In this document: positions 15,331 through 29,737 of the stretch, piece after piece
Layout: every line of letters starts with the position of its first letter
Position numbering within the stretch: position 1 is the stretch's first letter
Source of the DNA: Candidatus Eremiobacteria bacterium
GTDB taxonomy: Bacteria; Vulcanimicrobiota; Vulcanimicrobiia; Vulcanimicrobiales; Vulcanimicrobiaceae
Direction of reading: 5' to 3'
DNA length: 64,000 bases
Assembly: GCA_963737065.1 (NCBI GenBank)
Contig: CAVTRC010000001.1
Span: 2,304,001 to 2,368,000, forward strand
The notes under the pieces: model-generated
Told to the model about the DNA's origin: nothing
Seen by the model: the letters and a program-made list of their open reading frames with translations, nothing else
Database searches by the model: none
Translations under genes and position numbers: made by a program

Positions 15331-16008
15331 CTATTGCGCAGTTGGTACGGGATCGACCGTATCGAGATAGTTCGCAACGTAGAATTCGTAGAAGTGTCCG
15401 TTTTTGAACGACTGCGGATTCACAAGCGGCGGGAACTGCCACTGCGTCGCGGTGACTTGCGCCGGGCCTGCAATTGCTCCGACCTCGATACCGCTCCACG
15501 ATACGTCGATTCGTACGATATACAAATCGCCGGTCGATCCGCCGGGCGTTGACGTCGGACTGGGCGTTGGCGTCGGCGGAACCGTTTGAAATGCCATCGG
15601 CTTCAACGCGTCGGGTTCGTCGTTACGGCCGTCATGCAGCGTGCACGCGGGCAGTACGCTCGTGAGGTTCTGCAGCGAAAACGGCGCGTCCGAGTAGTAC
15701 CATGGGCCGAGCAGTGCCGTAGTCGGGTAGCACCTCGTGTACCAGCTCACGACCGCGAACGTTCCGTCGTTTGCAATGGTGAGCGGATCGTAGAAGTCCC
15801 AGCGCGGACGGCCGTCCCGATCCATGGATATGCGCGAGTTCGAGAGCGCCGGTATCGACGGCGCACTGGTCTGCGGCTTCAGATGGTGAACGGCCGGTGC
15901 AACGTTCCCGCTGCTGCCCGACATCGATGAAGTGCTGCCGCCGCAAGCGGCCAAAACCGCGAACGCTAATGCAGCAGACGAGAAGAGACGCGCGCGTTCG
16001 AGAAACAT
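15331..16008 (-). CDS. Hypothetical lipoprotein, paralog A
   Basis: Lipobox LAAC; strong similarity to 16123-16812. Confidence 0.75.
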   Translation of the reverse strand: MFLERARLFSSAALAFAVLAACGGSTSSMSGSSGNVAPAVHHLKPQTSAPSIPALSNSRISMDRDGRPRWDFYDPLTIANDGTFAVVSWYTRCYPTTALLGPWYYSDAPFSLQNLTSVLPACTLHDGRNDEPDALKPMAFQTVPPTPTPSPTSTPGGSTGDLYIVRIDVSWSGIEVGAIAGPAQVTATQWQFPPLVNPQSFKNGHFYEFYVANYLDTVDPVPTAQ

Positions 16009-16122
16009 ATGTATCCTTCCACGGAGCGCCGTTCTGGTTATCGACCTGGCGGATGTAAGCCTGCTCCGTAAACCGGCGCGCATCAAAAGAAACGGTAAAG
16101 GAGCCGTGTTAAATGTAAACGC

Positions 16123-16812
16123 TCAGCGTGCGAGCGGCACCGGGTCGTTCGTGTCGAGATACTTCGCGACGTAGAATTCGTAATAGTGACCGCTCGTAAA
16201 CAGCTCGCGATTGACGAGCGACGGAAATTCAAACGTTGTTGCGCTCACGTTTGCCGGACCGGCGATCGCCGCGACCTCAACGGAGCGCAACGTCATGTCG
16301 ACGCACACGATGTACACGTTCTCCGGAGATTCTGTCGGAATCGGGATCGGCGCTACGGTCGGCGTCGCTGTTGGAACGGGCGTCGGTGGAACGGTTTGGA
16401 AGCGCATCGGCAGACGCGCCTCGCTCTCCGGGATAACGGGGGTCGCATACAACGCACATCGTGCGAGTGTCGTGATCGCCGGGTTGGCCAATGACGATGT
16501 TCCATACGCCAAATACCAGGGGCCATTGAGACCTGACGTCGGATAGCAGGCGGCATAGGAAAAGGTCACGGCCAACGTGCCGTCGCTCGCGAAAGTCAAC
16601 GGCTGATAGAACCTCCAGCGAGGCGTCCCGTTCGGGCCGTTCGATAGCGCTGATGCCGTGAGCAAACCGGATCGCGGCGCGGCAATGGCGACGAGGCCCC
16701 CCTCCTGCGTGATGCGGGGCGCATCGGGCGCGGAAACATTACGGGCGCATGCGGCGAGAATCGCTGCAGCGAGCATCACAAAGACGGCGACACGTAACGG
16801 AACGGCTGACAT
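16123..16812 (-). CDS. Hypothetical lipoprotein, paralog B
   Basis: Lipobox LAAC; GGAGG RBS; shares PRWxFYxPLT, CYPT, GPWY, AIAGPA, YEFYVAxYLDT with paralog A. Confidence 0.75.
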   Translation of the reverse strand: MSAVPLRVAVFVMLAAAILAACARNVSAPDAPRITQEGGLVAIAAPRSGLLTASALSNGPNGTPRWRFYQPLTFASDGTLAVTFSYAACYPTSGLNGPWYLAYGTSSLANPAITTLARCALYATPVIPESEARLPMRFQTVPPTPVPTATPTVAPIPIPTESPENVYIVCVDMTLRSVEVAAIAGPANVSATTFEFPSLVNRELFTSGHYYEFYVAKYLDTNDPVPLAR

Positions 16813-16930: not shown

Positions 16931-18271
16931 TTATGCGATGAGTGCTTGGATCATGAGCGCCGCGACCTCACGCGAGTCGAGTTCGTACTGAGAGAGAACG
17001 CTCGTCGCTACTTGCGTGAGGATTTGTTCGCGCGTGAATGCCGTCACGGCTGAGCCGACATTCAAATCGCGGATAGAAGACTCCGATGACGTCAGATTCA
17101 CCGCCGCGACATTGTCGCTGTTCGAATCTTCTTGCGTGGACACCATCTGCGCACCGATCTGAGCGCGCACTTGCGAAATCTGGTCGAGTGCGTTTTGCAC
17201 GCGTAACTGCGCGTCCATCGCTGCCCATTGGTTGCTCGAATCGACCCCTTGCGTGTTGTCAAACTGGTCGACCATCGTCGGACGCAAGACGGAGATGTCG
17301 CTGACCTGCAACGCGTTCGTCGAGAGCGTCGGCAACGAAATTGCAACCGTGCCACCCTCGGTACCGGAGTCGTTGATATTGATCGCCGTGCCGCCGCCCG
17401 TTGCCCGGGGATCGAGGATGAAGATCCCTTCCGCAACTCCACCTGCGTCTTGCGGCGACAAATTCGCGAGGTTCACGGTCAAACCGTATCCTGAGGGCAT
17501 TGAAATATTGACGGGGCTTCCACCGCCCCCGAGATTCGGGCCGGCATTGACCGGCACTCCCGGTTGAACTTGTATGGATTCCGTCCCGTTGTTTGCGAAC
17601 GACGGATCGGTGCTGTACATGTCTTGTTCGAACGTCAGTGAACCGGTCGCTGCATCGTAGTTTTCGAGCTTAAACACGAAGACGCCGGTGAAGTGTTGGC
17701 CGGGCGCCTCGATCGTTTGCGAGTTCGGGTCGAACATGAGAGGACTCGATAGCTGCGAATTCGCGACGTCCGGAGTCGCTGCGTTACCGTCTGGTGCTTG
17801 ACCGGGATTGATCAGTTGCACGACGACGGGCGCGTTTGGCGCGGCAACATACGTGTCATGCGATCCGTCGAACAGTTTTACGCCGTTAAAATTCGCACTC
17901 GAAGAGATGTGGTTGATCTCTTTGAGCATCTGATCGATTTCAGTCTGAATCGCACTGAGCTGTTCGTTGGAATTGATGTCGGAGTTTGATTCGATGACTA
18001 GCGAATTCACGCGTTGCAGAATCTGCTGGATCTGCGCCGCGGCGCCGTCGGCAACCGCCAGAAGGTTTCCACCGGTTTGGACGTTTTCGACCGCTTGTTG
18101 CAGGCCGCTAACGCGCGTTTGCAAGCTCTCTGAGATTGCAAGGCCACTCGGATCGTCGGCGGCATTTTCAATCCGTAAACCGCTCGAGAGTTTGCTCGTG
18201 AGCGAAGACAGATTGTCCTGGTGCTGGCCGAGGTTGTAGAGGATGTTATCCATTCCGTTCGTGATGTTCAT
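16931..18271 (-). CDS. Flagellin-family protein (atypical termini)
   Basis: KLSSGLRIENAADDPSGLAISE, NFNGVKLFDG, RAQIGA, SESSIRDLN, REQILTQ. Confidence 0.9.
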   Translation of the reverse strand: MNITNGMDNILYNLGQHQDNLSSLTSKLSSGLRIENAADDPSGLAISESLQTRVSGLQQAVENVQTGGNLLAVADGAAAQIQQILQRVNSLVIESNSDINSNEQLSAIQTEIDQMLKEINHISSSANFNGVKLFDGSHDTYVAAPNAPVVVQLINPGQAPDGNAATPDVANSQLSSPLMFDPNSQTIEAPGQHFTGVFVFKLENYDAATGSLTFEQDMYSTDPSFANNGTESIQVQPGVPVNAGPNLGGGGSPVNISMPSGYGLTVNLANLSPQDAGGVAEGIFILDPRATGGGTAININDSGTEGGTVAISLPTLSTNALQVSDISVLRPTMVDQFDNTQGVDSSNQWAAMDAQLRVQNALDQISQVRAQIGAQMVSTQEDSNSDNVAAVNLTSSESSIRDLNVGSAVTAFTREQILTQVATSVLSQYELDSREVAALMIQALIA

Positions 18272-18619: not shown

Positions 18620-21600
18620 ATGACGTTTAAGTACGTCATGAGGCGCTTCTCGAGCGAACGCGCGTTCGGCCGCGTTATCCAACTCTTCGGGCTCGCGCTG
18701 ATGGTCGTTTCGGCGACGGCGTTTTTTGCCACGCGCAATGTGCGCGCGGAAACGATCGAAACTGTCCTTCGGCAATCGGCGCAAGCGATGCACGCCGCAC
18801 TCGACGTGGCCGCGGCCCCTTCACCGTCGCCTTCGCCTACGCCAGAATCCGCTGCGATGGAAGACATCGGCGAACATTCCGGACTGATCGCCACGCCTGG
18901 TCCAAGCACGCCGCCGGTCATCTCGCACGGTGGGCGTCTTGAATACACTATTAATGGAAGCCTCAGCCTCGGGAACCGGTCGTCGGGAAGCACGCGGCTC
19001 GATGGGACGGGCGAAACGCTCGTTTCCAACGTGGCGGAAACCGACGGCTCCGTCGGGATGAATCTCGAGCTGCGCCGCCGCACCGCGATGACGACCACGG
19101 ATCTTCAGATTCCGCTCGGGATCTCGACGCAAGGCGCGCAGTACGGGTACGGCAATCTTTCGTATTCGACGCCAAAGTATACGCTGGGTTATGCCTCCAT
19201 TCCGATCGCGTTGCTCGGTCAACTGACGCTCGGTGCAACGCAGCGCGGTCCGTACATGACGGTGCCGTACGGAACGGGCGACATCTCGATGTTCGAGGGG
19301 TTCACGACCGGCGTCGATCAGGAAGGCCTACATTTATATGGTATGCGAGCCCGCCGGCTCTATGGACGGACGCTCATGGAGCTCGGCTACGTCTATAATC
19401 CGCAAGCGCCGCAAACGGGATCGGCCGGCACGGCATTTGTCGGGGTCGCGTATGCAAAGAACGCGTTGTCGGCGATTCTCGAAACAGCGGAACAACATCG
19501 CGAAACTCCGACCGGCGATCTTTCGCTGTTTTCGTCGCAGCTTCGCCTAGACGATGGACTGCAGCAGGGAACGTACTCGCTGACGCTTCGGGACATTCCG
19601 GAGCGGCTGCTGTCCTACAATGCCGGCGAACTCTCCGGCGACAAGCTCGCCGATTTTTCGTATCGTTCGAATGGCCGCGGTGCATTGGGGCTCGACTTCG
19701 CGCTCGAGAAGAGCAGCTATCTCGGCCAAGTTTCGTCGCAGGAGCGCTCGCTGCTCAACTATGATTTCACGACGGGCGCGATCGGCTACAGCGTCGGGTT
19801 ACAGAATCAGCGCATCGCGGGCAGTCCGACCGAGTGGTCGGGGCTCGGCTCGCTGCAGCTGTCGTTTCCGATTCGAAACGGTTACGGCGTCGCGAGCGCA
19901 CAGTTTGGTCGAACGACGGAAGACGGAACCGGTCCGGTTGGGACAGCGCTCTATAACGTTGCTCTCTCCCGGCAGTTCGGCTCGTACGTCGTCGGCGGCT
20001 CGTTGACGCGGCAAAACCAATCGAGTACGACGACGGGCTTTTCACGTCAGAGCACGGCCGCCGTATCGTTTCAACGCACGTTTGGCAAAACGTCGATCGG
20101 CTACCAATATCAACTTTCGCGAACGCAGTCGCCCGTCAGCGATGCGTTGCAGAGCTTTCCCGCGTTCATCGTGCAGCGGCAGATTTCGCCCGTCATCTCG
20201 GTTCAAGCGCAGTACAGCATCCAACACCTAAGCGACCCGATCAATCCGGGATCGAACGGAACGTCGCGAAACTTCAGCATTCAGTTGAATGCACCGTTTG
20301 CCGTCGGAAATACGAACGTCGAAGGACGAACGGATCCGCGCTTGCCCGCGATGATCGAAGGGCGCATCACGGCGGATCTAGGCAACAACAACGCGCTCGC
20401 GGGCCTTTTAACCGGCGGACTGGGCAATATCGTCGTCGTTCTCGACAACACGCAAATTCAACGCACCGACTTGCAAGGCAATTTTCAGTTTTCGTACGTG
20501 CGTCCCGGCTCGCATCAATTACGCGTCGAGACGGCGTCGCTTCCGCGCGGCTATACCGTCGATCAACCGATCGTTACGCTGAACCTCGACGGCGGACAGA
20601 CCGCGCAAGTATATCTTCGCGTCGGCGATTTCGGCGGTATCGTCGGTCACGTGTTCGGCACCGATGCGAACGGCCAACGCATTCCGCTCGCCGGAGTAAA
20701 GCTGCGGATCGACGGCGGCCAGTACGCGCAGACGGATCAGCAAGGCATCTACGGCTTTGGGCGCCTTCTCTCCGGCAGCCACACGATCGAGATCATCGAG
20801 AACACCGTACCGGCCTTTGCGTCGTTCGACGAAAAATCCGTGAAACGGGACGTTAGCGTTCAGCGCGGTTCAACGGCAACGCTCGACTTCGTCGGCGAAC
20901 AGCTGGGATCGATTACCGGCAAAGTCGTCTATGATGCGACGCTCGCGCCCAATTACACGGGTCCGGTCATGAATGCATACGTCGTTGCAGAACCGGGAGA
21001 GCACGCAGCGATTACCAACGACGACGGCACGTTTTTGATCGACGACCTTCCCCCGGGTGACTACACCGTGTCGGTTGATCCGGAAACGGTTCCGGAGGAA
21101 ACGGGACAGCTCGGCGATCCTCTTTCCGTTGTGTTAAAGGGCAACGATAATTATCGCGGCGCGCTCTTCCTCGTCGGCCACGCCGTAAAGAAGGTCGTCT
21201 TCAGCCTTCTCTCTGGCGGTGCGGTGCCGGCAAGTCTCCACGTAAGTGAAGGCCGGTTGCCGCCGGGTGGTGCGACTGATGTTAGCGTTACTGCTCCCGC
21301 GGACGCTCACACCGTCACCGTATCGGGGCTCGGCGACGACGTCGACTTGAGCTTTGATGCAAAACGAAAGGAATGGACCGGCACGGTTCTCGTTCCATCG
21401 AAGGCGGCCGCCGGCACCGTCACGTTGACCGCTTCGGTCAGGCAGACGTCGGGCTCGATTGCGACCGCGACGGCAAAGGTCGTAATCGATCCGAAGTTGC
21501 CGATCGCGATCGTTCAATTGATTCCAGCGAATGCGGCGATCGGATCGTTCGCCGCCGCGCGTGCACGATTTCTGGTTGACGCGCGTCCCGGCGACAAGAT

Positions 21601-21742
21601 CGACTGGGAGGACGGACAGGAAACGGTTCTGGGCAAGCCCGTCGTCGGGCGCATCTTTACGTTCAGCCTGCGTCTTTCTTTACGCCCTCTGCATGGAGTG
21701 CTCCTAACCAAGACTGCTCGCTTGCCGATAAGCATTATGTAA
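18620..21742 (+). CDS. Usher-like outer-membrane protein: beta-strand-rich core plus three carboxypeptidase-regulatory/Cna-B-like Ig domains
   Basis: Signal-like segment; long amphipathic strand region; repeats TDLQGNFQF..PGSH, TDQQGIYGF..SGSH, TNDDGTFLI..PGDY. Confidence 0.65.
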   Translation: MTFKYVMRRFSSERAFGRVIQLFGLALMVVSATAFFATRNVRAETIETVLRQSAQAMHAALDVAAAPSPSPSPTPESAAMEDIGEHSGLIATPGPSTPPVISHGGRLEYTINGSLSLGNRSSGSTRLDGTGETLVSNVAETDGSVGMNLELRRRTAMTTTDLQIPLGISTQGAQYGYGNLSYSTPKYTLGYASIPIALLGQLTLGATQRGPYMTVPYGTGDISMFEGFTTGVDQEGLHLYGMRARRLYGRTLMELGYVYNPQAPQTGSAGTAFVGVAYAKNALSAILETAEQHRETPTGDLSLFSSQLRLDDGLQQGTYSLTLRDIPERLLSYNAGELSGDKLADFSYRSNGRGALGLDFALEKSSYLGQVSSQERSLLNYDFTTGAIGYSVGLQNQRIAGSPTEWSGLGSLQLSFPIRNGYGVASAQFGRTTEDGTGPVGTALYNVALSRQFGSYVVGGSLTRQNQSSTTTGFSRQSTAAVSFQRTFGKTSIGYQYQLSRTQSPVSDALQSFPAFIVQRQISPVISVQAQYSIQHLSDPINPGSNGTSRNFSIQLNAPFAVGNTNVEGRTDPRLPAMIEGRITADLGNNNALAGLLTGGLGNIVVVLDNTQIQRTDLQGNFQFSYVRPGSHQLRVETASLPRGYTVDQPIVTLNLDGGQTAQVYLRVGDFGGIVGHVFGTDANGQRIPLAGVKLRIDGGQYAQTDQQGIYGFGRLLSGSHTIEIIENTVPAFASFDEKSVKRDVSVQRGSTATLDFVGEQLGSITGKVVYDATLAPNYTGPVMNAYVVAEPGEHAAITNDDGTFLIDDLPPGDYTVSVDPETVPEETGQLGDPLSVVLKGNDNYRGALFLVGHAVKKVVFSLLSGGAVPASLHVSEGRLPPGGATDVSVTAPADAHTVTVSGLGDDVDLSFDAKRKEWTGTVLVPSKAAAGTVTLTASVRQTSGSIATATAKVVIDPKLPIAIVQLIPANAAIGSFAAARARFLVDARPGDKIDWEDGQETVLGKPVVGRIFTFSLRLSLRPLHGVLLTKTARLPISIM
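21705..21731 (+). promoter_or_regulatory. Sigma28-like internal promoter before the putative major fibre subunit
   Basis: TAAC-N15-GCCGATAA, 64 nt before ATG 21796. Confidence 0.55.
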
Positions 21743-21795
21743 CTCGCTTACCCGCTTATGCCACGGAGGGCAATCTTGCGCATGGTGAAAGGTCG

Positions 21796-22476
21796 ATGAA
21801 CCAAAAACGTATTGCAGGGCTCGCGCTAATCGCGTCCCTTTTCGCGCTGGCGGCCCCCGCAAATGCGGCGACCGTCAATAAAACGATCACGGTCAAGTGG
21901 AACACGCAGGCAACGGCCACGCTGAACGTCCATACGAACTACGCTGCATCCGGTCTGTCGAACAGCCCTGGCACGGCCGGTTCGATTCTAGCCCACGGCG
22001 CCGGCGCTTGTACCGCAGCCGACCCGACGAATTCGGACGGTACAAACGACTTCGGTCAAGTATCGCCTGACGGCGGCGGCGGCATGCAGGACTGCCTGTA
22101 CAAAAACGCAGCCAATGCGATCGTCGCGACAAACTCGACGAACTGGAATCTCACGGCAGCGACGGCCACGAACCCGACGACACTCGGCGCTGAGCTTTGC
22201 GCATTGGCGAACGGTGTCGCGAACTTCCCGTTCAGCGCGGCCGCGCTGCCGGTTACGCAAACGGTTCGTGCGGCAGCACTTTCCAGCGCATCGACGGCGA
22301 GCTGCGTGTCCGGCAGCGTGCTGAACAACACCGCTCTGACGCTTGCGAACGAAACGAACGCGTTCACCGGTGCCAGCCCGGCGAATATCGGGTTCGATCT
22401 CGATCTCGTTCTCGGACCAACCGCGAACACCGGTAACCAGTCGGAAGTCGTGACGTTCACGCTCACGGCGAACTAG
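21796..22476 (+). CDS. Putative major pilin/fibre subunit
   Basis: Signal peptide (ANA), Ala/Thr/Asn-rich beta protein, 4 Cys, NDFGQV motif, C-terminal strand VVTFTLTAN. Confidence 0.65.
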   Translation: MNQKRIAGLALIASLFALAAPANAATVNKTITVKWNTQATATLNVHTNYAASGLSNSPGTAGSILAHGAGACTAADPTNSDGTNDFGQVSPDGGGGMQDCLYKNAANAIVATNSTNWNLTAATATNPTTLGAELCALANGVANFPFSAAALPVTQTVRAAALSSASTASCVSGSVLNNTALTLANETNAFTGASPANIGFDLDLVLGPTANTGNQSEVVTFTLTAN

Positions 22477-22551
22477 TTCGTAAAGGTTACACTCTTTACT
22501 CGCTTCGCCGCGGGACGCGCAGTGCATTCGCGGCGAAGTGTTCGGGTCACA

Positions 22552-23349
22552 ATGCAAAATCGACGAATCGCACTCTTTGCGTTCATCTTTGCGGCGGTAC
22601 TTGTCGTGCCAAACCGGGTCAGTTCGGAAGGCCTCGGCATCGAAGTCACGCCGGCAAAACTCGAAGTGCAAATTGGACCGGCCGCAAGTTATAACATCCC
22701 GGTTACGGTTCGCAACTCTTCCAGTGATTCGACCCACGTACAGGCCACGATGGTGGACTTCGGCGTGTCGACGAACGGAAGCTACGAGTTTGGACGCGTC
22801 GGAGCGCGGCCGTTCTCGCTGATGAAATACGCAGCGATCCGCCCTCGTGAATTCGACTTGCCCGCGGGAACCACGCAACAGGTTCAACTCACGATCGTGA
22901 TGCCGAACGATTCAAAGCTTTCTGGTGAATACGCCGGAATCGTCTTCTTCCAAACGCGGCCGATTCGGCGCGCCGGTTCGAACGTGGCGTTTTCCGCCCG
23001 CGTCGCATCGAAGATTTACGAAGCAATTCCGGGCAGCGTCAAAATCGACGGTGCAATCACCAAGATGGTCAGTGCAAAGAGTGGACGCGGCCAAGTGTAT
23101 CGCGTGAGCTTTAAAAACACCGGGAACGTTCACGTCTATCTCCGTGGGCAAGTAACTATCCAGAAGAGCGGCCAAGTCGTCGATCAAGTTGCAATGGAAA
23201 ACGGCATGCTCGTCGAGCGCGGCGGAGACCGCATCGTCGAGGTGACGGGAAAGAAACTTCCTCCGGGACAGTATCAAGCGATTGCGACAATGGACTACGG
23301 TGGCCAAACAGAAACCGGCGGCGAGATTCAGTTTAGCGTTGAACGATAA
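22552..23349 (+). CDS. Putative pilus chaperone (PapD/DUF916-like, two Ig domains)
   Basis: Signal peptide; IEVTPAKLEV, VTVRNSS, GEYAGIVFF, FKNTGNVHV, LPPGQY. Confidence 0.7.
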   Translation: MQNRRIALFAFIFAAVLVVPNRVSSEGLGIEVTPAKLEVQIGPAASYNIPVTVRNSSSDSTHVQATMVDFGVSTNGSYEFGRVGARPFSLMKYAAIRPREFDLPAGTTQQVQLTIVMPNDSKLSGEYAGIVFFQTRPIRRAGSNVAFSARVASKIYEAIPGSVKIDGAITKMVSAKSGRGQVYRVSFKNTGNVHVYLRGQVTIQKSGQVVDQVAMENGMLVERGGDRIVEVTGKKLPPGQYQAIATMDYGGQTETGGEIQFSVER

Positions 23350-23410
23350 CGCCGGCTTCTAAACAACCTAGATCGCTACGGTCTGCGCTAAGGGAAGTGC
23401 GCAGAGCCTC

Positions 23411-24106
23411 TTGGAGAGCACAAGGATCGTGTACGCAGCGCTTGTCAGAAGGATGGTGTACGGAATCGTTGCGTTTGCAACGGCGGCGCTAAGCCTTGCG
23501 CCAGCGTTTGCATCGACCGCAATGGACGTCACTAAGGTCAAATGGAGCGCGATGCCGATCGTGCACTTCACGCTAACGCCGAACTATGCGTCCGGATTCG
23601 GCTCGGTCAAGGCGACCTTTGGAACGCAACCCGCGCCAACGCATGGTCCCGATGCACTTCAAAACAATGGAGCGGTCGATTTCGGTTCGGTCCTCGGTGG
23701 AACGACGTACCTTTACAAGTACGCCGCGCACGTTAACGTGACGACGAACGACCCAATGGGTTTCTTCGTGTACGCCGAAGGCGCCGCGGACTTTTTTAAC
23801 ACCGCTGATAGCTCGACGCAGCCGCTGAATTCGACGCTCTACTATCTTCAGTCGACGAGCGGTTCACCGCCGGACCCGAACACGGGATTTTCGGCGGCGC
23901 TTCCCTTCTATCGCACGGGTTCCGTCGTCACCGGCGGCAGCCAGTTCACTGCACCGACGATTTCCTACACGACGTATCCCGCACCGGTCGCAACCGCGAT
24001 GAGCGCAAACGGCGACTACTACTTCGACTATCAACTGCGCGTGCCGGGTGCAGCCACGCGCGGTCTCTATTACGTTTGGATCGTCTATACGGTGGTGGCG
24101 CGGTGA
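23411..24106 (+). CDS. Putative minor pilin-like subunit
   Basis: Shares VKW..L..NY, VDFGSV and YKYAA with the major subunit; ends GLYYVWIVYTVVAR; alternative start 23453. Confidence 0.6.
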   Translation: MESTRIVYAALVRRMVYGIVAFATAALSLAPAFASTAMDVTKVKWSAMPIVHFTLTPNYASGFGSVKATFGTQPAPTHGPDALQNNGAVDFGSVLGGTTYLYKYAAHVNVTTNDPMGFFVYAEGAADFFNTADSSTQPLNSTLYYLQSTSGSPPDPNTGFSAALPFYRTGSVVTGGSQFTAPTISYTTYPAPVATAMSANGDYYFDYQLRVPGAATRGLYYVWIVYTVVAR

Positions 24107-24822
24107 AAAAGCTTCGCTACCTCTTTTTGATCTTCGCATTCCTAGCGGCCGCGCCGATCGTCGTTGAAGCCGCGCTGCAAAGTCAGCAGGCGCAGATCGC
24201 CGTTACGATCATCGTGAACGTGACTCCCAACCCACTCGGCTACACTGGAAAACCGGCGATCGCCGGCAACCAAATCGTGGCAACAGCGAAGCTGCGGGGA
24301 GCGCCTCCCGAGATCGAGCGCGTATTCGAAGCGCAGCAGCTCCATTTCGTTCCGAAAGGCGCTGAAATTGTCGCACAGGCGCAAGTTCAGCATGCGATAA
24401 AAGTTGAGGCCGAGGTCACTCCAAATCCGAATGCAACGCTTCTGACGTCCGATGCTTCCGGATATCAAGTGATCTTGAATGCGGAAGCCGGTACCCCGAC
24501 GTCGGTTCCGTGTGCGTATCATGTCCAGGTTAAGACGACGAAGACCGGATGGACGCTCAAGCATGGTCTTGCCGGAAACTTCAGCAATGGCGGAAGCGAC
24601 TCGTTCGTGGGCTCTAGCCTGGCGAATAACTCCCACGTCGGACCAACGCCGTTACCGACTGCAACGCCGTTCGTTGTTTATTCTACCGACGGCGGCGTGT
24701 GGGCAGTGCTTCAAACGAACAGCGGTACGCAAACGTATTGCGTCGATCTGACGCTCAACATGCCGATCACAACTGCTCAAGGAACGTATAGTTCGAATGC
24801 GATCTATACGTTGTACTACTAA
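24103..24822 (+). CDS. Putative minor pilin-like subunit
   Basis: GTG start overlapping upstream stop; signal peptide; ends GTYSSNAIYTLYY. Confidence 0.6.
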   Translation: MKKLRYLFLIFAFLAAAPIVVEAALQSQQAQIAVTIIVNVTPNPLGYTGKPAIAGNQIVATAKLRGAPPEIERVFEAQQLHFVPKGAEIVAQAQVQHAIKVEAEVTPNPNATLLTSDASGYQVILNAEAGTPTSVPCAYHVQVKTTKTGWTLKHGLAGNFSNGGSDSFVGSSLANNSHVGPTPLPTATPFVVYSTDGGVWAVLQTNSGTQTYCVDLTLNMPITTAQGTYSSNAIYTLYY

Positions 24823-27800
24823 TGTTTGCACGGAAGCTGCGCGGCGTTGTTGCGGGTGTATCGATCTTTCTTGCCGCGATATCGATCGGTCTTGCGCAAG
24901 TGCGGCCGCCGAGTCCGGTAGTTCACGGCGGGCAGCGGACCGTTCCGCGCCCGCTGATCACGGCATTGCCGCTTCCGGGTGCGACACCGGCTCCGGGCGC
25001 GACATCAACTCCCGCCTCGCATTTCGGTGCTCCGCTAAAAGGGTCGGGACGCGAGTATCCGGCTGGGACACGCGTCCCGCTTGCGGACCTTCCACGTCTG
25101 CCGATGAAAGCGTTGATTCCGACGATCAAAGCAAAATCGTATAGACAGCGGCATCCCTTCGCGCAGACCGGTGTAACGATCAACATCGTTTCGAGTACAT
25201 GCGCGAATCTCGTCGGCGATCTGTTCCCGACCGGCTGTAATCTGACGTTCAAAGCGGCAAGTTTGGCCGCCGGGAAGTACCAAGACTACGAGATCGCCCC
25301 GAACGCGACAACAGCGACGGCGGTCGGCGCTTCCTATACCAACACCGATTCGAATCGTACGATCGCTCTTACGAACGCCGGAGTCTACACGCTCGGCGTC
25401 TATGACGTAAACAATAACGATTGGGTCGCAGTCGTGTACGTCAACGCCGGAAACCCGGTGTTGCTGAAGGTCTATCAAGATCCGTACTTCTCGGAAGAGA
25501 CGTACCAATTCGATGCGTCGAGCAGCGGTGACGCGTACGTTCACATGACGAATCTTTCGGCGAACGATCTCTACGTCGTCGACATTGAATCGACATCGGT
25601 CCATCCGACGTGTGTTTTTTCCGCGCCGGCGCAAACGTCGATGCCGGCAAACACCCTGTGCAACCCGGGTAATTCGGCGGGAGAAACTGCACCCGGCGGC
25701 GTGCTCTCCGTTGCATGGCCGATCACATCCGCGCTCGGCGCGGGAACGTATTCGATCACGCTGTACGATAAATCCGTATCGCCGGCTCCCGGTCAGCGAA
25801 TCGCGCAAGTGCAGGTTTCGCTGACTGGTTCGAACGGCATCACGATGACGCTCAACGGTAACACGAACGGTTCGAACACGACGGTCAATCCGTCGCCGGC
25901 ACCCGCGGTGGTGCCGCAAGCGGCAACGGTATTCGCGTGGGACGATTCAAGCGAACAGTCCGTGTCCGGCGTTACGCTGGGTGTCGGAAGTTTGAGCGGC
26001 GACAAATATATTTGGTCGATCAACGATCCGACCGGTTATACGGCCGGTAAAGTCGGTCCGGTTACCTTGAATGGCATTGCGAGTCAAGGATTCACGTTCG
26101 GGACGATGGGCATCTACGGCCCGGGCGACTATCCCTCGCGAATCTTCACGGCGGGAATCTACGATTCGACCAGTCAGTCGATGTACGCCTCGCAGTCGTT
26201 CAAGGTCGTCGGCTACAACGCTGAAACCGCGTTCCATACGACGTCGGACGCATCGTCGCTGAGCGTCGCGCAGGGTTCGAACGCGACCGCAACGTTGAAG
26301 TTCACGAATTCCAGCGACCTCAACTACGGCGTTGGAAATGGCGACTCACTGGCCGGCATCGCGTACACGACCGGCCCCGACTTTACACCGCAGTCGGGTG
26401 GGTCCGGCACGGGTGTCGGTGTCATGATGGCGCTGGCCGGGAAGACGCTCGCGCAGTGTGTGATCCCCTCGGGATGCTCGACCACCGTAACGGATCCGAC
26501 GACCGGGTACGTGTGGAGCGTCAACGACTATTGCAGCGACAGCACCGTAACCACCACCGGCGAATGTTACCTGGTGATGTTGCCGCAGAGCAACGGCGTT
26601 TCATTACCGGTCGGTGACACGCTCACGATCCCGAACGTCACGTTTTATAATGCGACCGGCAGCGGTTGCAGCACGCAGTGCCAAGGATCGACGTCGATCT
26701 TGCCCTCGCACGGTGTCAAATGGTCGCGCATCGACACGCAGGAAGCGTTCTTTCCGACGTACTTCCAAAACGGCGCAACCACCTTAACCGGCACCGCGCA
26801 TCTGGCACTCGTGGGCTATCAAAACATCGGCGGCAGCAACAACCGCTTCACGTCGCCCGGCGTGCCGGAAGCGCATCTTTATCAGACACGCACGGTTCAC
26901 GCGACCTATGGATATCACAGTCCTTACGGGCTGACCAGCCAGGACTACATCATCTACGGTCTGACGGTCAATAACGGTGCATCATCTCAAACGATCAAGA
27001 CGGTTGCCGTGGCGCAACCCGGTCCGTTCTCAGGCGCCAACACGTTGAACAACGTCGCCGTCGACTCCAGCTCCAGCGGCAATAACGGCTGGGGTCTCGT
27101 CATCGGCGGACAGGCGCCATGTCAGAACCTCACGGCGGAATACTTCTGCGTCTACGCCAAGGGGACGAACCCTGGCGTCAAGGCGGGCAATTCGGCGACG
27201 ATCTACATCGATCAGAACGTCGCGCCGTTCAATTACGGTTACACCGACTGGGTCGTCTCGTCTGTGAATCCGAACTTCTCGATTACGGCAGACGGTACGA
27301 CGACGGTTCCGGTGAACAGTCCGTCGTTGTCGATCGATACGCTCGCGTTCGCGCAATACGCGCTCGACAGCTCGTCGATGTCGGCTTCGTTCGCACCGGG
27401 CACGGCCGGTCAAGGTGCGACGTCTACCGAAAATATCGTCGTCAGCAATGCATCGACGTCGAGCGATCCCAACCCCGACTACGTCGACGCCATTCTGATC
27501 GGTGTGCCGAACGGCGCGCCCCTCGTGAACGGAAATCCGACCACGTCGAGCACCGGCTGGTCGTACCTCGGGTCGTATAACGCCGGCAGCACGATCTACT
27601 ACTGGTTCGGCGTTTGTCCCAGTCAGTACACGAACGCGAACACGTATCTGCCGCCCGCGGCCACACCGAACACGTCGGTTCAAAACGCGCTGCCTCAATG
27701 TACGGCCGCACAGGAGAACAACTCGCTCGCGCCCGGCGGGACGTTCACCGGCACAATGGTGCTCAGCAACTTAAATAGCCCAAGCGTTAGCGTGCAGATG

Positions 27801-28889
27801 TGGGCGCACGGCGCCAACGGCGACGGCTGGTCGGCGCCGAAGACGATGACGTTGCCGGTATCGACCGTTACCGCGAGCGCCGGCTTCTCGAATGCCGGTA
27901 AATATGGCTCGCCGCCCGCGGTTGCGTCGAACACGGTGCCCACGATTGGCGGCAACAGCGACCCGTTGAACGGCAACTCGTACGTCTACACCGTGAAAAA
28001 CACCACGCAGGCGACGAACATTACGTCCTTCCGCGTACGCATCCCGGGTGTCGACGTCAGCGGAAACAACGCCTACGACGGCTCGAATGCCTGGCACGTG
28101 ACCAATGCAATTCCCACGCTCGGCGGAAACGTCGACGGCTGTACGATCACGAACGCGATTGCTGCGATGGCAGCTACGGCCGCTGGAGCAGACGGTGAAA
28201 TCGACGTCGGAGGAGCGAGCTGCAAATTGAAAGCGGGCGATACGATCACGTTGAGCTTCAGCGCGATCGGGCCCGAAGCGCAATCGGATTCCTATCCGTT
28301 CGATACCTACTGCTTGAACAATACGGCGGGTACGTGCACGGTGACGAACGGTTCGAATGCCGGCGAAAATTGGCTGGGCGACACGCGGGTTCAGGTGCAG
28401 TTGACGATCGGCTTGAACGTCGTGGTGGATCCCAGTAATCCGGGCCCAGGCAGCTCGACACCGGTCATCAGTTGTCCCGGATGTTCGTTCTCCGGTACGA
28501 CGGTCGACGTCGGAACGATTGGATCGAACTCGACGGGCGCGTTTACCGACATCGTTCGCGCGTCGATTTATATCCAGTCGAACACCACGGTGAACTACAC
28601 CCTCTCGGTGTCGGCGAATCAGAATCCGGCGAACAGCACCGGAACGCCGACGAACGAGTTGTTGACCGCGGTCGATCCGTCGAACTCAACGAGCGGTGCC
28701 GGCATCAACTTCGATCAAACCTCGTACGCCGTTGTTCCGACCGCGACTACGATGCAGGTGGCTCACGGTGCGAGCATCACGACGAGGAGCTTGCCGTACG
28801 ACGTTCTGCAAGACTTCCAAGTGTCGATCGGCAACGAATCGATTATGCCGCAGGCGTCGGTCGTTACGTATACGTTGATCGCGAACTAA
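24822..28889 (+). CDS. Large (1355 aa) beta-rich tip adhesin with C-terminal pilin-like domain
   Basis: Signal peptide; Ser/Thr/Asn/Gly-rich with many Cys; C-terminal TVDVGTI...VVTYTLIAN parallels the major subunit; TAATG overlap. Confidence 0.65.
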   Translation: MFARKLRGVVAGVSIFLAAISIGLAQVRPPSPVVHGGQRTVPRPLITALPLPGATPAPGATSTPASHFGAPLKGSGREYPAGTRVPLADLPRLPMKALIPTIKAKSYRQRHPFAQTGVTINIVSSTCANLVGDLFPTGCNLTFKAASLAAGKYQDYEIAPNATTATAVGASYTNTDSNRTIALTNAGVYTLGVYDVNNNDWVAVVYVNAGNPVLLKVYQDPYFSEETYQFDASSSGDAYVHMTNLSANDLYVVDIESTSVHPTCVFSAPAQTSMPANTLCNPGNSAGETAPGGVLSVAWPITSALGAGTYSITLYDKSVSPAPGQRIAQVQVSLTGSNGITMTLNGNTNGSNTTVNPSPAPAVVPQAATVFAWDDSSEQSVSGVTLGVGSLSGDKYIWSINDPTGYTAGKVGPVTLNGIASQGFTFGTMGIYGPGDYPSRIFTAGIYDSTSQSMYASQSFKVVGYNAETAFHTTSDASSLSVAQGSNATATLKFTNSSDLNYGVGNGDSLAGIAYTTGPDFTPQSGGSGTGVGVMMALAGKTLAQCVIPSGCSTTVTDPTTGYVWSVNDYCSDSTVTTTGECYLVMLPQSNGVSLPVGDTLTIPNVTFYNATGSGCSTQCQGSTSILPSHGVKWSRIDTQEAFFPTYFQNGATTLTGTAHLALVGYQNIGGSNNRFTSPGVPEAHLYQTRTVHATYGYHSPYGLTSQDYIIYGLTVNNGASSQTIKTVAVAQPGPFSGANTLNNVAVDSSSSGNNGWGLVIGGQAPCQNLTAEYFCVYAKGTNPGVKAGNSATIYIDQNVAPFNYGYTDWVVSSVNPNFSITADGTTTVPVNSPSLSIDTLAFAQYALDSSSMSASFAPGTAGQGATSTENIVVSNASTSSDPNPDYVDAILIGVPNGAPLVNGNPTTSSTGWSYLGSYNAGSTIYYWFGVCPSQYTNANTYLPPAATPNTSVQNALPQCTAAQENNSLAPGGTFTGTMVLSNLNSPSVSVQMWAHGANGDGWSAPKTMTLPVSTVTASAGFSNAGKYGSPPAVASNTVPTIGGNSDPLNGNSYVYTVKNTTQATNITSFRVRIPGVDVSGNNAYDGSNAWHVTNAIPTLGGNVDGCTITNAIAAMAATAAGADGEIDVGGASCKLKAGDTITLSFSAIGPEAQSDSYPFDTYCLNNTAGTCTVTNGSNAGENWLGDTRVQVQLTIGLNVVVDPSNPGPGSSTPVISCPGCSFSGTTVDVGTIGSNSTGAFTDIVRASIYIQSNTTVNYTLSVSANQNPANSTGTPTNELLTAVDPSNSTSGAGINFDQTSYAVVPTATTMQVAHGASITTRSLPYDVLQDFQVSIGNESIMPQASVVTYTLIAN

Positions 28890-28945
28890 CTGCTGCGCGG
28901 GGCGAGCGAAAGGAACGGGAAGCCGGCCATCGCACAGCAAGAGTC

Positions 28946-29737
28946 GTGAGCGATTCTCCGATCCGCCGCCCCGACCCGTTGACGGTCGCGCTTGACGCCG
29001 CGCGCGAAGCGGCAGCCGTGCTGCTCGATCATGCGCATCGTCCGCTGGAAATTGAAGAGAAAGGCCGTCGCGCGGACATCGTCACCGCAGCGGATCGCGC
29101 AAGCGAAGCGGTGATTTTGCGAACGCTTCGCGCGGCGTTTCCAAACGCGAGCGTCCTTGCTGAAGAGAGTGGCCGGTACGAAGGCACATCGGATGAACGA
29201 TGGGTCGTCGATCCGCTCGACGGCACGACGAACTACGCGCACGGCTATCCGCTCTATTGCGTCTCGATCGGGTTCGAACGCGCCGGCGAACTCCTTGCGG
29301 CGGTCGTATACGTGCCGACGACGAACGAGTGTTTTACTGCTGAACGCGGCGCCGGCGCGCGCCTGAACGACGCGCCTATCTCGGTATCCGACATCGACAA
29401 CGTTGCGCACGCGATGGTGTGCACGGGCTTTCATCCATCGGATTACCCGCGCAACGGCAAGTACTTCGAGGAAATGTCTTTCCATGCGCAGGCCGTGCGT
29501 CGCGACGGCTCGGCCGCGCTCGACTTGGCGAATACGGCGTGCGGAAGATTCGACGGCTTTTGGGAGTGGGATCTCAACCCATGGGACGTTGCTGCGGGGA
29601 CGTTGCTCATCACGGAAGCGGGCGGACGGGTCACGCGTATCGACGGAACGCCCGCGGCGCTCGACGCGCGTTCGATTCTTGCAACGAATGCAAGGATTCA
29701 TGCAGAGATGCAGGGCGTTCTTGCGGCCGTACAGTAA
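28946..29737 (+). CDS. suhB: Inositol monophosphatase (SuhB-like)
   Basis: DIVTAAD, AEES, WVVDPLDGTTNYAHG, RRDGSAALD, PWDVAAG. Confidence 0.9.
   Translation: MSDSPIRRPDPLTVALDAAREAAAVLLDHAHRPLEIEEKGRRADIVTAADRASEAVILRTLRAAFPNASVLAEESGRYEGTSDERWVVDPLDGTTNYAHGYPLYCVSIGFERAGELLAAVVYVPTTNECFTAERGAGARLNDAPISVSDIDNVAHAMVCTGFHPSDYPRNGKYFEEMSFHAQAVRRDGSAALDLANTACGRFDGFWEWDLNPWDVAAGTLLITEAGGRVTRIDGTPAALDARSILATNARIHAEMQGVLAAVQ

Follow-up and report, generated by a model that had tools for sequence, protein, structure and literature searches.

Here, we describe a cluster of six co-directional genes in a 64,000-nucleotide (nt) stretch of the genome of a Candidatus Eremiobacteria bacterium (assembly GCA_963737065.1, contig CAVTRC010000001.1, positions 2,304,001 to 2,368,000; hereafter the window). 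The cluster probably encodes a pilus that a WxL-type chaperone and a non-canonical usher assemble by donor-strand exchange. In gene order, it comprises a predicted outer-membrane pore (U), a likely major pilin (P1), the chaperone (C), a minor pilin (P2), a third, pilin-like protein (P3) and a likely tip adhesin (A). The genome encodes Omp85, and there is therefore an outer membrane to be crossed; the sole cultured member of the phylum has a Gram-negative envelope (PMC9758169, available text). A first-pass annotation of the window had proposed a hybrid of chaperone-usher and WxL fibre systems, a reading borne out by the WxLIP-like chaperone and the predicted usher-like barrel, and the six open reading frames (ORFs) are co-directional, at the place and with the lengths that it gave. 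Annotation overlooks the system because its genes, generic domains aside, reach no family cut-off: in the six proteins the Pfam matches are limited to CarboxypepD_reg/SdrD_B-type domains of U and one to WxLIP_PGBD, below threshold, in C, and no NCBIfam match reaches its cut-off.

The WxLIP-like chaperone and its gene cluster

Sequence comparison identifies C as a soluble WxLIP-like chaperone that is strictly linked to U. The family PF06030 (WxLIP_PGBD/DUF916) matches 18 of 27 aligned C homologues at E<=0.01, and two distant relatives (L099, L104) exceed its cut-off, while PapD_N is found in none of the 27 and PapD_C in one (E 0.008). The only solved structure matched by the C profile below E 0.01 is EfmWxLIP1, the WxLIP1 of Enterococcus faecium (E 7e-4, over the N-terminal domain). 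The same profile matches chaperones beside the canonical ushers of the phylum (E 3e-4 to 3e-8), which makes a remote kinship between C and the PapD family likely. No match to C was found in plasmids.

Hydropathy gives no C-terminal membrane helix on C, the maximum over the last 110 residues being at most 1.3 in all homologues of the soluble class and 1.87-3.82 in the anchored ones, which are mostly from the candidate phyla radiation (CPR). An ORF of at least 600 amino acids (aa) bearing U-type C-terminal domains (CTDs) is present in 25 of 37 loci with soluble chaperones and in 0 of 38 with anchored ones, counted in flanks of at most 10 kb and leaving out L023, L028, L034 and L079 (coverage under 0.6). 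Since the flanks are this short and the loci related, the contrast is a pattern and not a statistic. The 12 soluble-chaperone loci without such an ORF are six truncated contigs, three frameshifted loci, one contig end, L031 and L050. In L050 (89-4904, Aerophobetes), a tandem double WxLIP-like chaperone is followed by two secretin genes, which stand in place of a CTD-bearing barrel. Further, eleven weaker chaperone loci of the phylum (L098-L108) mostly adjoin a 640-1020-aa protein, with a CTD match in eight and a plug match in none.

Related loci were collected by tblastn with the chaperone, and the best 80 of 91 confirmed stretches were used. The closest chaperone homologues (L002-L034, 43-69% identity) belong to Vulcanimicrobiota/Eremiobacterota, as far as their records give a phylum, and the next (22-33% identity) to Armatimonadota-type, CPR and a few other genomes. 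The order U-P1-C-P2-P3-A is complete in 20 of the 33 closest loci; contig ends truncate eight of the other 13, a P1 match is all that is missing from L024, and L012, L031, L032 and L034 are frameshifted or rearranged. This retention of gene order, together with the homology seen among the subunits in profile comparisons, places the cluster beyond chance. In a sample of 151 phylum genomes, the chaperone profile matches 36, of which 28 strongly (E<1e-70), and U has a strong match in 29. When compared by hand, all 28 genomes with a strong chaperone match carry U within 10 kb on the same contig, and in the 29th genome with a strong U match U lies at a contig edge. Clustered at 50% identity, full-length relatives of U fall into about 50 groups that make up a compact family; further out, the matches are to CTDs only.

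The same kinds of parts also occur in other arrangements. Their order is shuffled in L110 and L111, and L031 (7324-18933) and L110 hold expanded arrays with two chaperones and several pilins, to which L031 adds two adhesins. Armatimonadota-type loci (L035:8778-13289, L036, L037, L039, L047) have three genes, for a 170-aa pilin, a soluble chaperone and an 800-aa barrel that carries Cu_amine_oxidN1 at its N-terminus as well as two SdrD_B domains; in L035, L036 and L047 they are immediately preceded by a type IV pilin-like gene. Profile comparison of the U barrel with these barrels gives 0.2%, the link between them being only through the CTDs and gene context. In a Methanoregulaceae archaeon (L075:8162-11377), three 170-186-aa pilin-like genes precede a membrane-anchored chaperone homologue, an arrangement by which the module may extend to archaea. 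CPR-style anchored chaperones with pilins were also found in L040 and L072 (records titled Gammaproteobacteria and Terrimonas), whose contigs are possibly mis-binned.

The predicted outer-membrane pore

U is predicted to be a beta-barrel, as the first-pass annotation had supposed, with closure of the barrel deduced from structural matches. The AlphaFold2 (AF2) model of residues 90-1040, built from 67 sequences (pLDDT 86.9, pTM 0.58), holds about 26 strands by our own count, most of which alternate in hydrophobicity throughout the alignment, and then five small beta domains. The barrel of FimD has 24 strands and that of MtrB 26. Foldseek ranks FimD/PapC first (E 1.5e-13), and VIA-align places MtrB at the top (Z 20.4, root-mean-square deviation (rmsd) 8.0, 403 residues), then TonB-dependent receptors (Z 18-19) and the FimD/PapC pores (Z 16.7-17.6, rmsd 5.9-6.2, 341-358 residues, superposed from strand 1). 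With full-length FimD, the alignment spans the barrel and two CTDs (model 12-671 to FimD 131-833). The FimD pore aligns over 342 residues. In the Atlas, the U region falls among unnamed clusters of outer-membrane barrels. The three Cna-B-like domains noticed earlier correspond to three CarboxypepD_reg stretches in Pfam, and these CTDs reach 94-96% by hhalign against an usher alignment. The CTD-like domains are the most conserved part of U (0.51-0.59, against 0.37-0.47 for the barrel).

Ushers comprise an N-terminal domain (NTD), pore, plug, CTD1 and CTD2 (PMC3960871, accessible part). In U, no folded domain precedes strand 1 and the usher NTD profile gives 6%; the segment ahead of strand 1, signal peptide counted, has a median of about 85 residues in 57 homologues and is Pro-rich and poorly ordered. 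Likewise, the model holds no globular insert that could be a plug and the plug profile gives 9%, with the strand 6-7 junction spanning 14-15 residues in 60 sequences. As a control, the plug hidden Markov model finds the canonical ushers of the phylum at E about 1e-30, having been partly built from them. PF00577 (Usher) matches neither U nor anything else in the genome. The fourth and fifth small domains were considered as a relocated plug or NTD and rejected, at under 4% by profile comparison; they are candidates for a second docking site or a gate. In profile comparison with an alignment of FimD and 12 phylum ushers, whether or not its plug columns were included, the barrel stayed at 12% or less and preferred a strand register other than that of the structural alignment. 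The likeness to FimD/EcpC of the strand 5-6 hairpin and of the strand 13-14 insertion is, for this reason, only a judgement by eye. The earlier statement that this usher is unlike FimD/PapC thus needs dividing: it stands for the missing NTD and plug, the roughly two additional strands and the three additional C-terminal domains, and falls for the layout, a barrel followed by CTD1/CTD2-like domains being that of FimD. On these models, U is most likely a non-canonical usher that keeps the CTDs without NTD and plug.

An alternative, which we consider unlikely, is that the chaperone alone builds the fibre, as in Elr and Pam, and that U, having a separate origin and an usher layout reached by convergence, serves as a passive exit pore and anchors the base without being a catalyst. 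ElrD polymerises with ElrE as its only helper (bioRxiv 10.64898/2026.10.17.759780, available sections), the NTD and plug that U lacks serve recruitment in FimD/PapC (PMC3960871, accessible part), the U barrel has no detectable sequence homology to ushers, and a similar chaperone adjoins two secretins in L050. Against this alternative, the CTD-like domains of U are placed as in FimD, and their high conservation fits a role in binding.

Subunits and a proposed assembly route

According to sequence profiles, P1, P2 and the C-terminal domain of A are homologous pilins, their folds being assigned by homology. By hhalign, the match between P1 and P2 runs along the length of both (98%), and the last 185 aa of A match P1 at 93% and P2 at 81%. 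The match of A begins after the N-terminal strand of P1, as expected for a tip protein, although the strand just ahead of the pilin domain of A could still serve as a donor linker. The remaining N-terminal part of A, about 1165 aa, contains Cys, and Pfam matches neither A nor 13 of its homologues. In the alignment, P1 has three invariant Cys and an N-terminal donor-like strand ending in an invariant Trp; by a pattern fitted to the data, an alternating, Trp-ending N-terminal strand is present in 22 of 22 P1 and 23 of 25 P2 sequences. The terminal strands quoted in the first-pass annotation (VVTFTLTAN, WIVYTVVAR, NAIYTLYY and VVTYTLIAN) were recovered as such, and so was the D[FV]Gx[VI] motif in P1 (residue 85), P2 (90) and A (1229); the motif occurs once more in U (670). 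The Atlas neighbours of P1 are WxL (0.93) and SCPU (0.92) at the feature level, and no related solved structure was found with the P1 and P2 profiles. A complex prediction with three copies of P1 scored 0.29 (mark 0.42) and was counted neither way.

P3 is more distant from P1 and P2 and lacks the DFG motif. According to fitted patterns, all 24 homologues have a pair of similar donor-like strands at a distance of 26-53 residues, and in the best AF2 model (77.8) the first is ordered in the sheet and the second free. Fold search with this model gives TLP-1b (Z 8.8, rmsd 3.0, 126 residues), Saci0406 (7.3), CfaE (7.2), CanA (7.1) and the pilin domains of CsuE and FimH (6.4), as well as FimA, TasA and PapA, and the free second strand aligns with the N-terminal extensions of matched donor-strand-exchange subunits. 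ElrD and PamA/B were not among the matches listed, which is uninformative as their entries may not be in the library. The Pam pilin family NF058581 gives 14 bits for P3, with a cut-off of 55. AF2 tends to fold donor strands back, and for this reason, together with the modest Z-scores, we put P3 forward as a candidate self-capping base subunit and its role as terminator as hypothetical.

A second alternative, which we hold to be improbable, is that the product is no long pilus and that only a few subunits join, in a short stalk or a fixed complex displaying A. In its favour, A is big enough to project unaided, and P2 and P3 are single-copy and well conserved, P2 being the most conserved subunit at a mean identity of 53.5%. 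P1, however, is the most variable pilin (38.5%), has a ribosome-binding gap to itself and occurs in duplicate in L031 and L110, features that we take to be frequent in major pilins, and the Armatimonadota-type loci have one small pilin, a chaperone and a barrel without any match to A. Least probable is a surface coat in which the small proteins, secreted through U, are monomeric with complete Ig-like folds and exchange no strands, since, even if the first strand of P3 folds back on itself in the model and no pilin family matches the small proteins at its cut-off, the alternating N-terminal strands are conserved, the C-terminal strands are free, the chaperone is a dedicated WxLIP-like one and the fold matches are mostly to strand-exchange fibres.

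For the pilus made by the WxL-type chaperone and U, we infer polymerisation and usher activity, and take strand exchange, subunit order, docking on the CTDs and gating by analogy from the Fim/Pap and Elr pathways. All six proteins would cross the inner membrane by Sec. C would then bind the C-terminal strand of each subunit, filling its groove, and the complexes of C with subunits would dock on the C-terminal domains of U, the extra domains replacing the missing NTD as a second docking site. A, whose pilin domain lacks a clear N-terminal donor strand, would enter first, as the tip. P2 and many copies of P1 would join, each inserting its Trp-ending N-terminal strand into the preceding subunit, and the fibre would leave through the barrel. 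Finally, P3 would give its second strand to the fibre while its own groove is filled by its first, which would end growth and hold the base. The resting pore might be closed by the strand 5-6 hairpin, by long loops or by one of the C-terminal domains.

Several points weigh against this reading. No fibre, complex or expression has been observed. C scores 26.0 bits in PF06030, where the cut-off is 27.3, and DUF3324 (PF11797) matches 0 of 27 C homologues. Because the loci are related, the counts lack independence; in L031, chaperones and pilins occur with no U inside the locus, and L110 has no P3 match. For U, the Foldseek TM-scores to FimD are low (0.24-0.32), the domain packing of the model is uncertain at its pTM, and the barrel match is partly generic, given that MtrB and TonB-dependent receptors outscore FimD by Z. 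Barrel-to-barrel homology between U and ushers was undetected by profile comparison (12% or less), and CarboxypepD_reg-like domains are frequent outside ushers. Only one of five P3 models is confident, the other four reaching 57-65, and the P3 Z-scores of 6-9 lie near the range of common arrangements, with similar values for glycoside-hydrolase domains (7.9, 7.1).

The features of the cluster are given in Table 1. Successive genes are separated by 53, 45 and 61 nt, after which P2 and P3 overlap by 4 nt and P3 and A by 1 nt. Read from its first TTG, the P3 ORF covers 24076-24822 (248 aa), and its GTG start at 24103 overlaps the P2 stop. All six ORFs have a signal-peptide-like N-terminus, judged by eye. 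A scan for sigma-70 promoters and terminators gave no more signal than shuffled sequences.

Table 1. Genes and domains of the cluster (window positions)
Feature	Position	Strand	Description	Basis
U	18620..21742	+	1040 aa; predicted outer-membrane pore, usher-like	AF2, Foldseek
U barrel	18938..20290 (residues 107-557)	+	run of about 26 strands without globular insert	AF2, structural alignment
U CTD-like region	20336..21181 (residues 573-854)	+	three CarboxypepD_reg/Cna-B-like domains	Pfam, hhalign
U extra domains	21218..21739 (residues 867-1040)	+	two small beta domains, no family match	
P1	21796..22476	+	226 aa; major pilin (likely)	alignment, hhalign to P2, Atlas neighbours
C	22522..23349, likely start ATG 22552	+	275 aa; soluble WxLIP/DUF916-like chaperone	
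P2	23411..24106	+	231 aa or less; minor pilin; donor-like strand as in P1	
P3	24103..24822	+	239 aa from GTG; pilin fold; two donor-like strands	
A	24822..28889	+	1355 aa; tip adhesin (likely); no-family region of about 1165 aa, then C-terminal pilin domain	
A C-terminal pilin domain	about 28395-28886	+		hhalign to P1, P2

A flagellin-like gene of 446 aa (16931-18271, minus strand) is divergent from the operon, and all 22 loci with sufficient flanking sequence have it upstream of U. The two may share a control region, or the arrangement may be plain synteny; Flagellin_N has four matches in the genome, which also carries two FlhA-family genes. A pair of similar lipoprotein-like ORFs (15331-16086 and 16123-16812, minus strand) contains Pro/Thr-rich stretches, has no family match and was found by tblastn in none of the related loci. 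Downstream, an ORF that by eye is inositol-monophosphatase-like (28472-29737, minus strand) is convergent with A, and this region is kept downstream of A in many loci.

Comparison with known systems

With chaperone-usher pili, the cluster shares its operon content (a pore, a soluble chaperone of two domains, pilins and a tip protein ending in a pilin domain), as well as the CTD1/CTD2-like domains after the barrel and a pilin fold as in CfaE, CsuE, FimH and PapA. It differs in having no PF00577, PapD_N or SCPU match and no NTD or plug, and in the approximately 26 strands and five C-terminal domains of U and the size of A. A plain archaic chaperone-usher system was considered and rejected, such systems being separate in the phylum with their own Pfam signatures: Usher (PF00577) occurs in 17 of 151 genomes, this one not included, and these canonical ushers come with a plug, an SCPU pilin and a PapD_N chaperone, PapD_N matching three of three chaperones beside them. 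As canonical archaic systems occupy other loci of the phylum, the present cluster is a separate system. In canonical systems, the usher cycle is accounted for by recruitment at the NTD, displacement of the plug and transfer to the CTDs, and a natural pore with CTDs but without NTD and plug would reveal which usher parts are needed. The Synechocystis system also differs from the present cluster, with its FimD-like usher and PapD-like chaperone (10.1101/130278, available text).

Closer parallels are found in WxL/Elr pili. According to the accessible part of a 2026 preprint (bioRxiv 10.64898/2026.10.17.759780), ElrE, the DUF916/DUF3324 chaperone of Enterococcus faecalis, readies WxL pilins for donor-strand exchange, a C-terminal membrane helix occurs in 96.7% of WxL chaperones, and a Pfam-based screen confines the chaperone-pilin system to Bacillota. 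As far as that text goes, both systems have a WxLIP-family chaperone, single-domain pilins of about 200 aa, an adhesin with a C-terminal pilin domain and a donor strand of alternating small hydrophobic residues with a large aromatic at its end, which is Trp here and Phe in the Elr consensus. Here, however, C lacks a membrane helix and is accompanied by a predicted outer-membrane pore, and the host is a diderm outside Bacillota; Pfam gives no WxL domain (PF13731) in the pilins at E<=0.1, and none of the six proteins ends in an LPxTG sorting signal.

Pam pili of CPR, whose pilins are CPR-only in the available sections of a second 2026 preprint (bioRxiv 10.64898/2026.03.03.709456), have two-domain pilins in which the donor linker is internal, anchor their chaperones in the membrane and lack an usher. 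They resemble the present system in donor-strand chemistry, in the CPR chaperone homologues that are the next relatives of C by tblastn and in the weak NF058581 match of P3, and differ from it in that P1 and P2 each consist of one domain and an N-terminal strand, the chaperone is soluble and a barrel is predicted. A WxLIP-type chaperone combined with an outer-membrane barrel was not described in the literature searched, which was mostly open, and preprint supplements may list such loci. The freshwater fibrils TLP-1a/b (PDB 9IKJ/9IKK) are secreted and use donor-strand exchange, and are orphans whose source organism and assembly genes are unknown (PMC11494351, accessible part). TLP-1 is the best structural match of the P3 pilin domain, at 13% identity; its donor geometry is n+4. 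The cluster may give a clue to how TLP-1 and other orphan fibres are assembled.

Taken together, soluble, pore-linked chaperones carry the WxLIP family into diderms, and the pattern suggests a rule by which chaperones have a membrane anchor where there is no outer membrane and a barrel where there is one. Tentatively, and with somewhat less than even confidence, we propose that U is the prototype of a second usher class found across several diderm phyla, which assembles WxL-type pilins without NTD or plug. Its extra C-terminal domains would serve as second docking site and gate, its wider barrel would pass A, and a subunit with two donor strands would end growth by capping itself. The class would form the diderm arm of one superfamily joining WxL, Pam and chaperone-usher pili, with the chaperone anchored in monoderms and soluble and pore-coupled in diderms.

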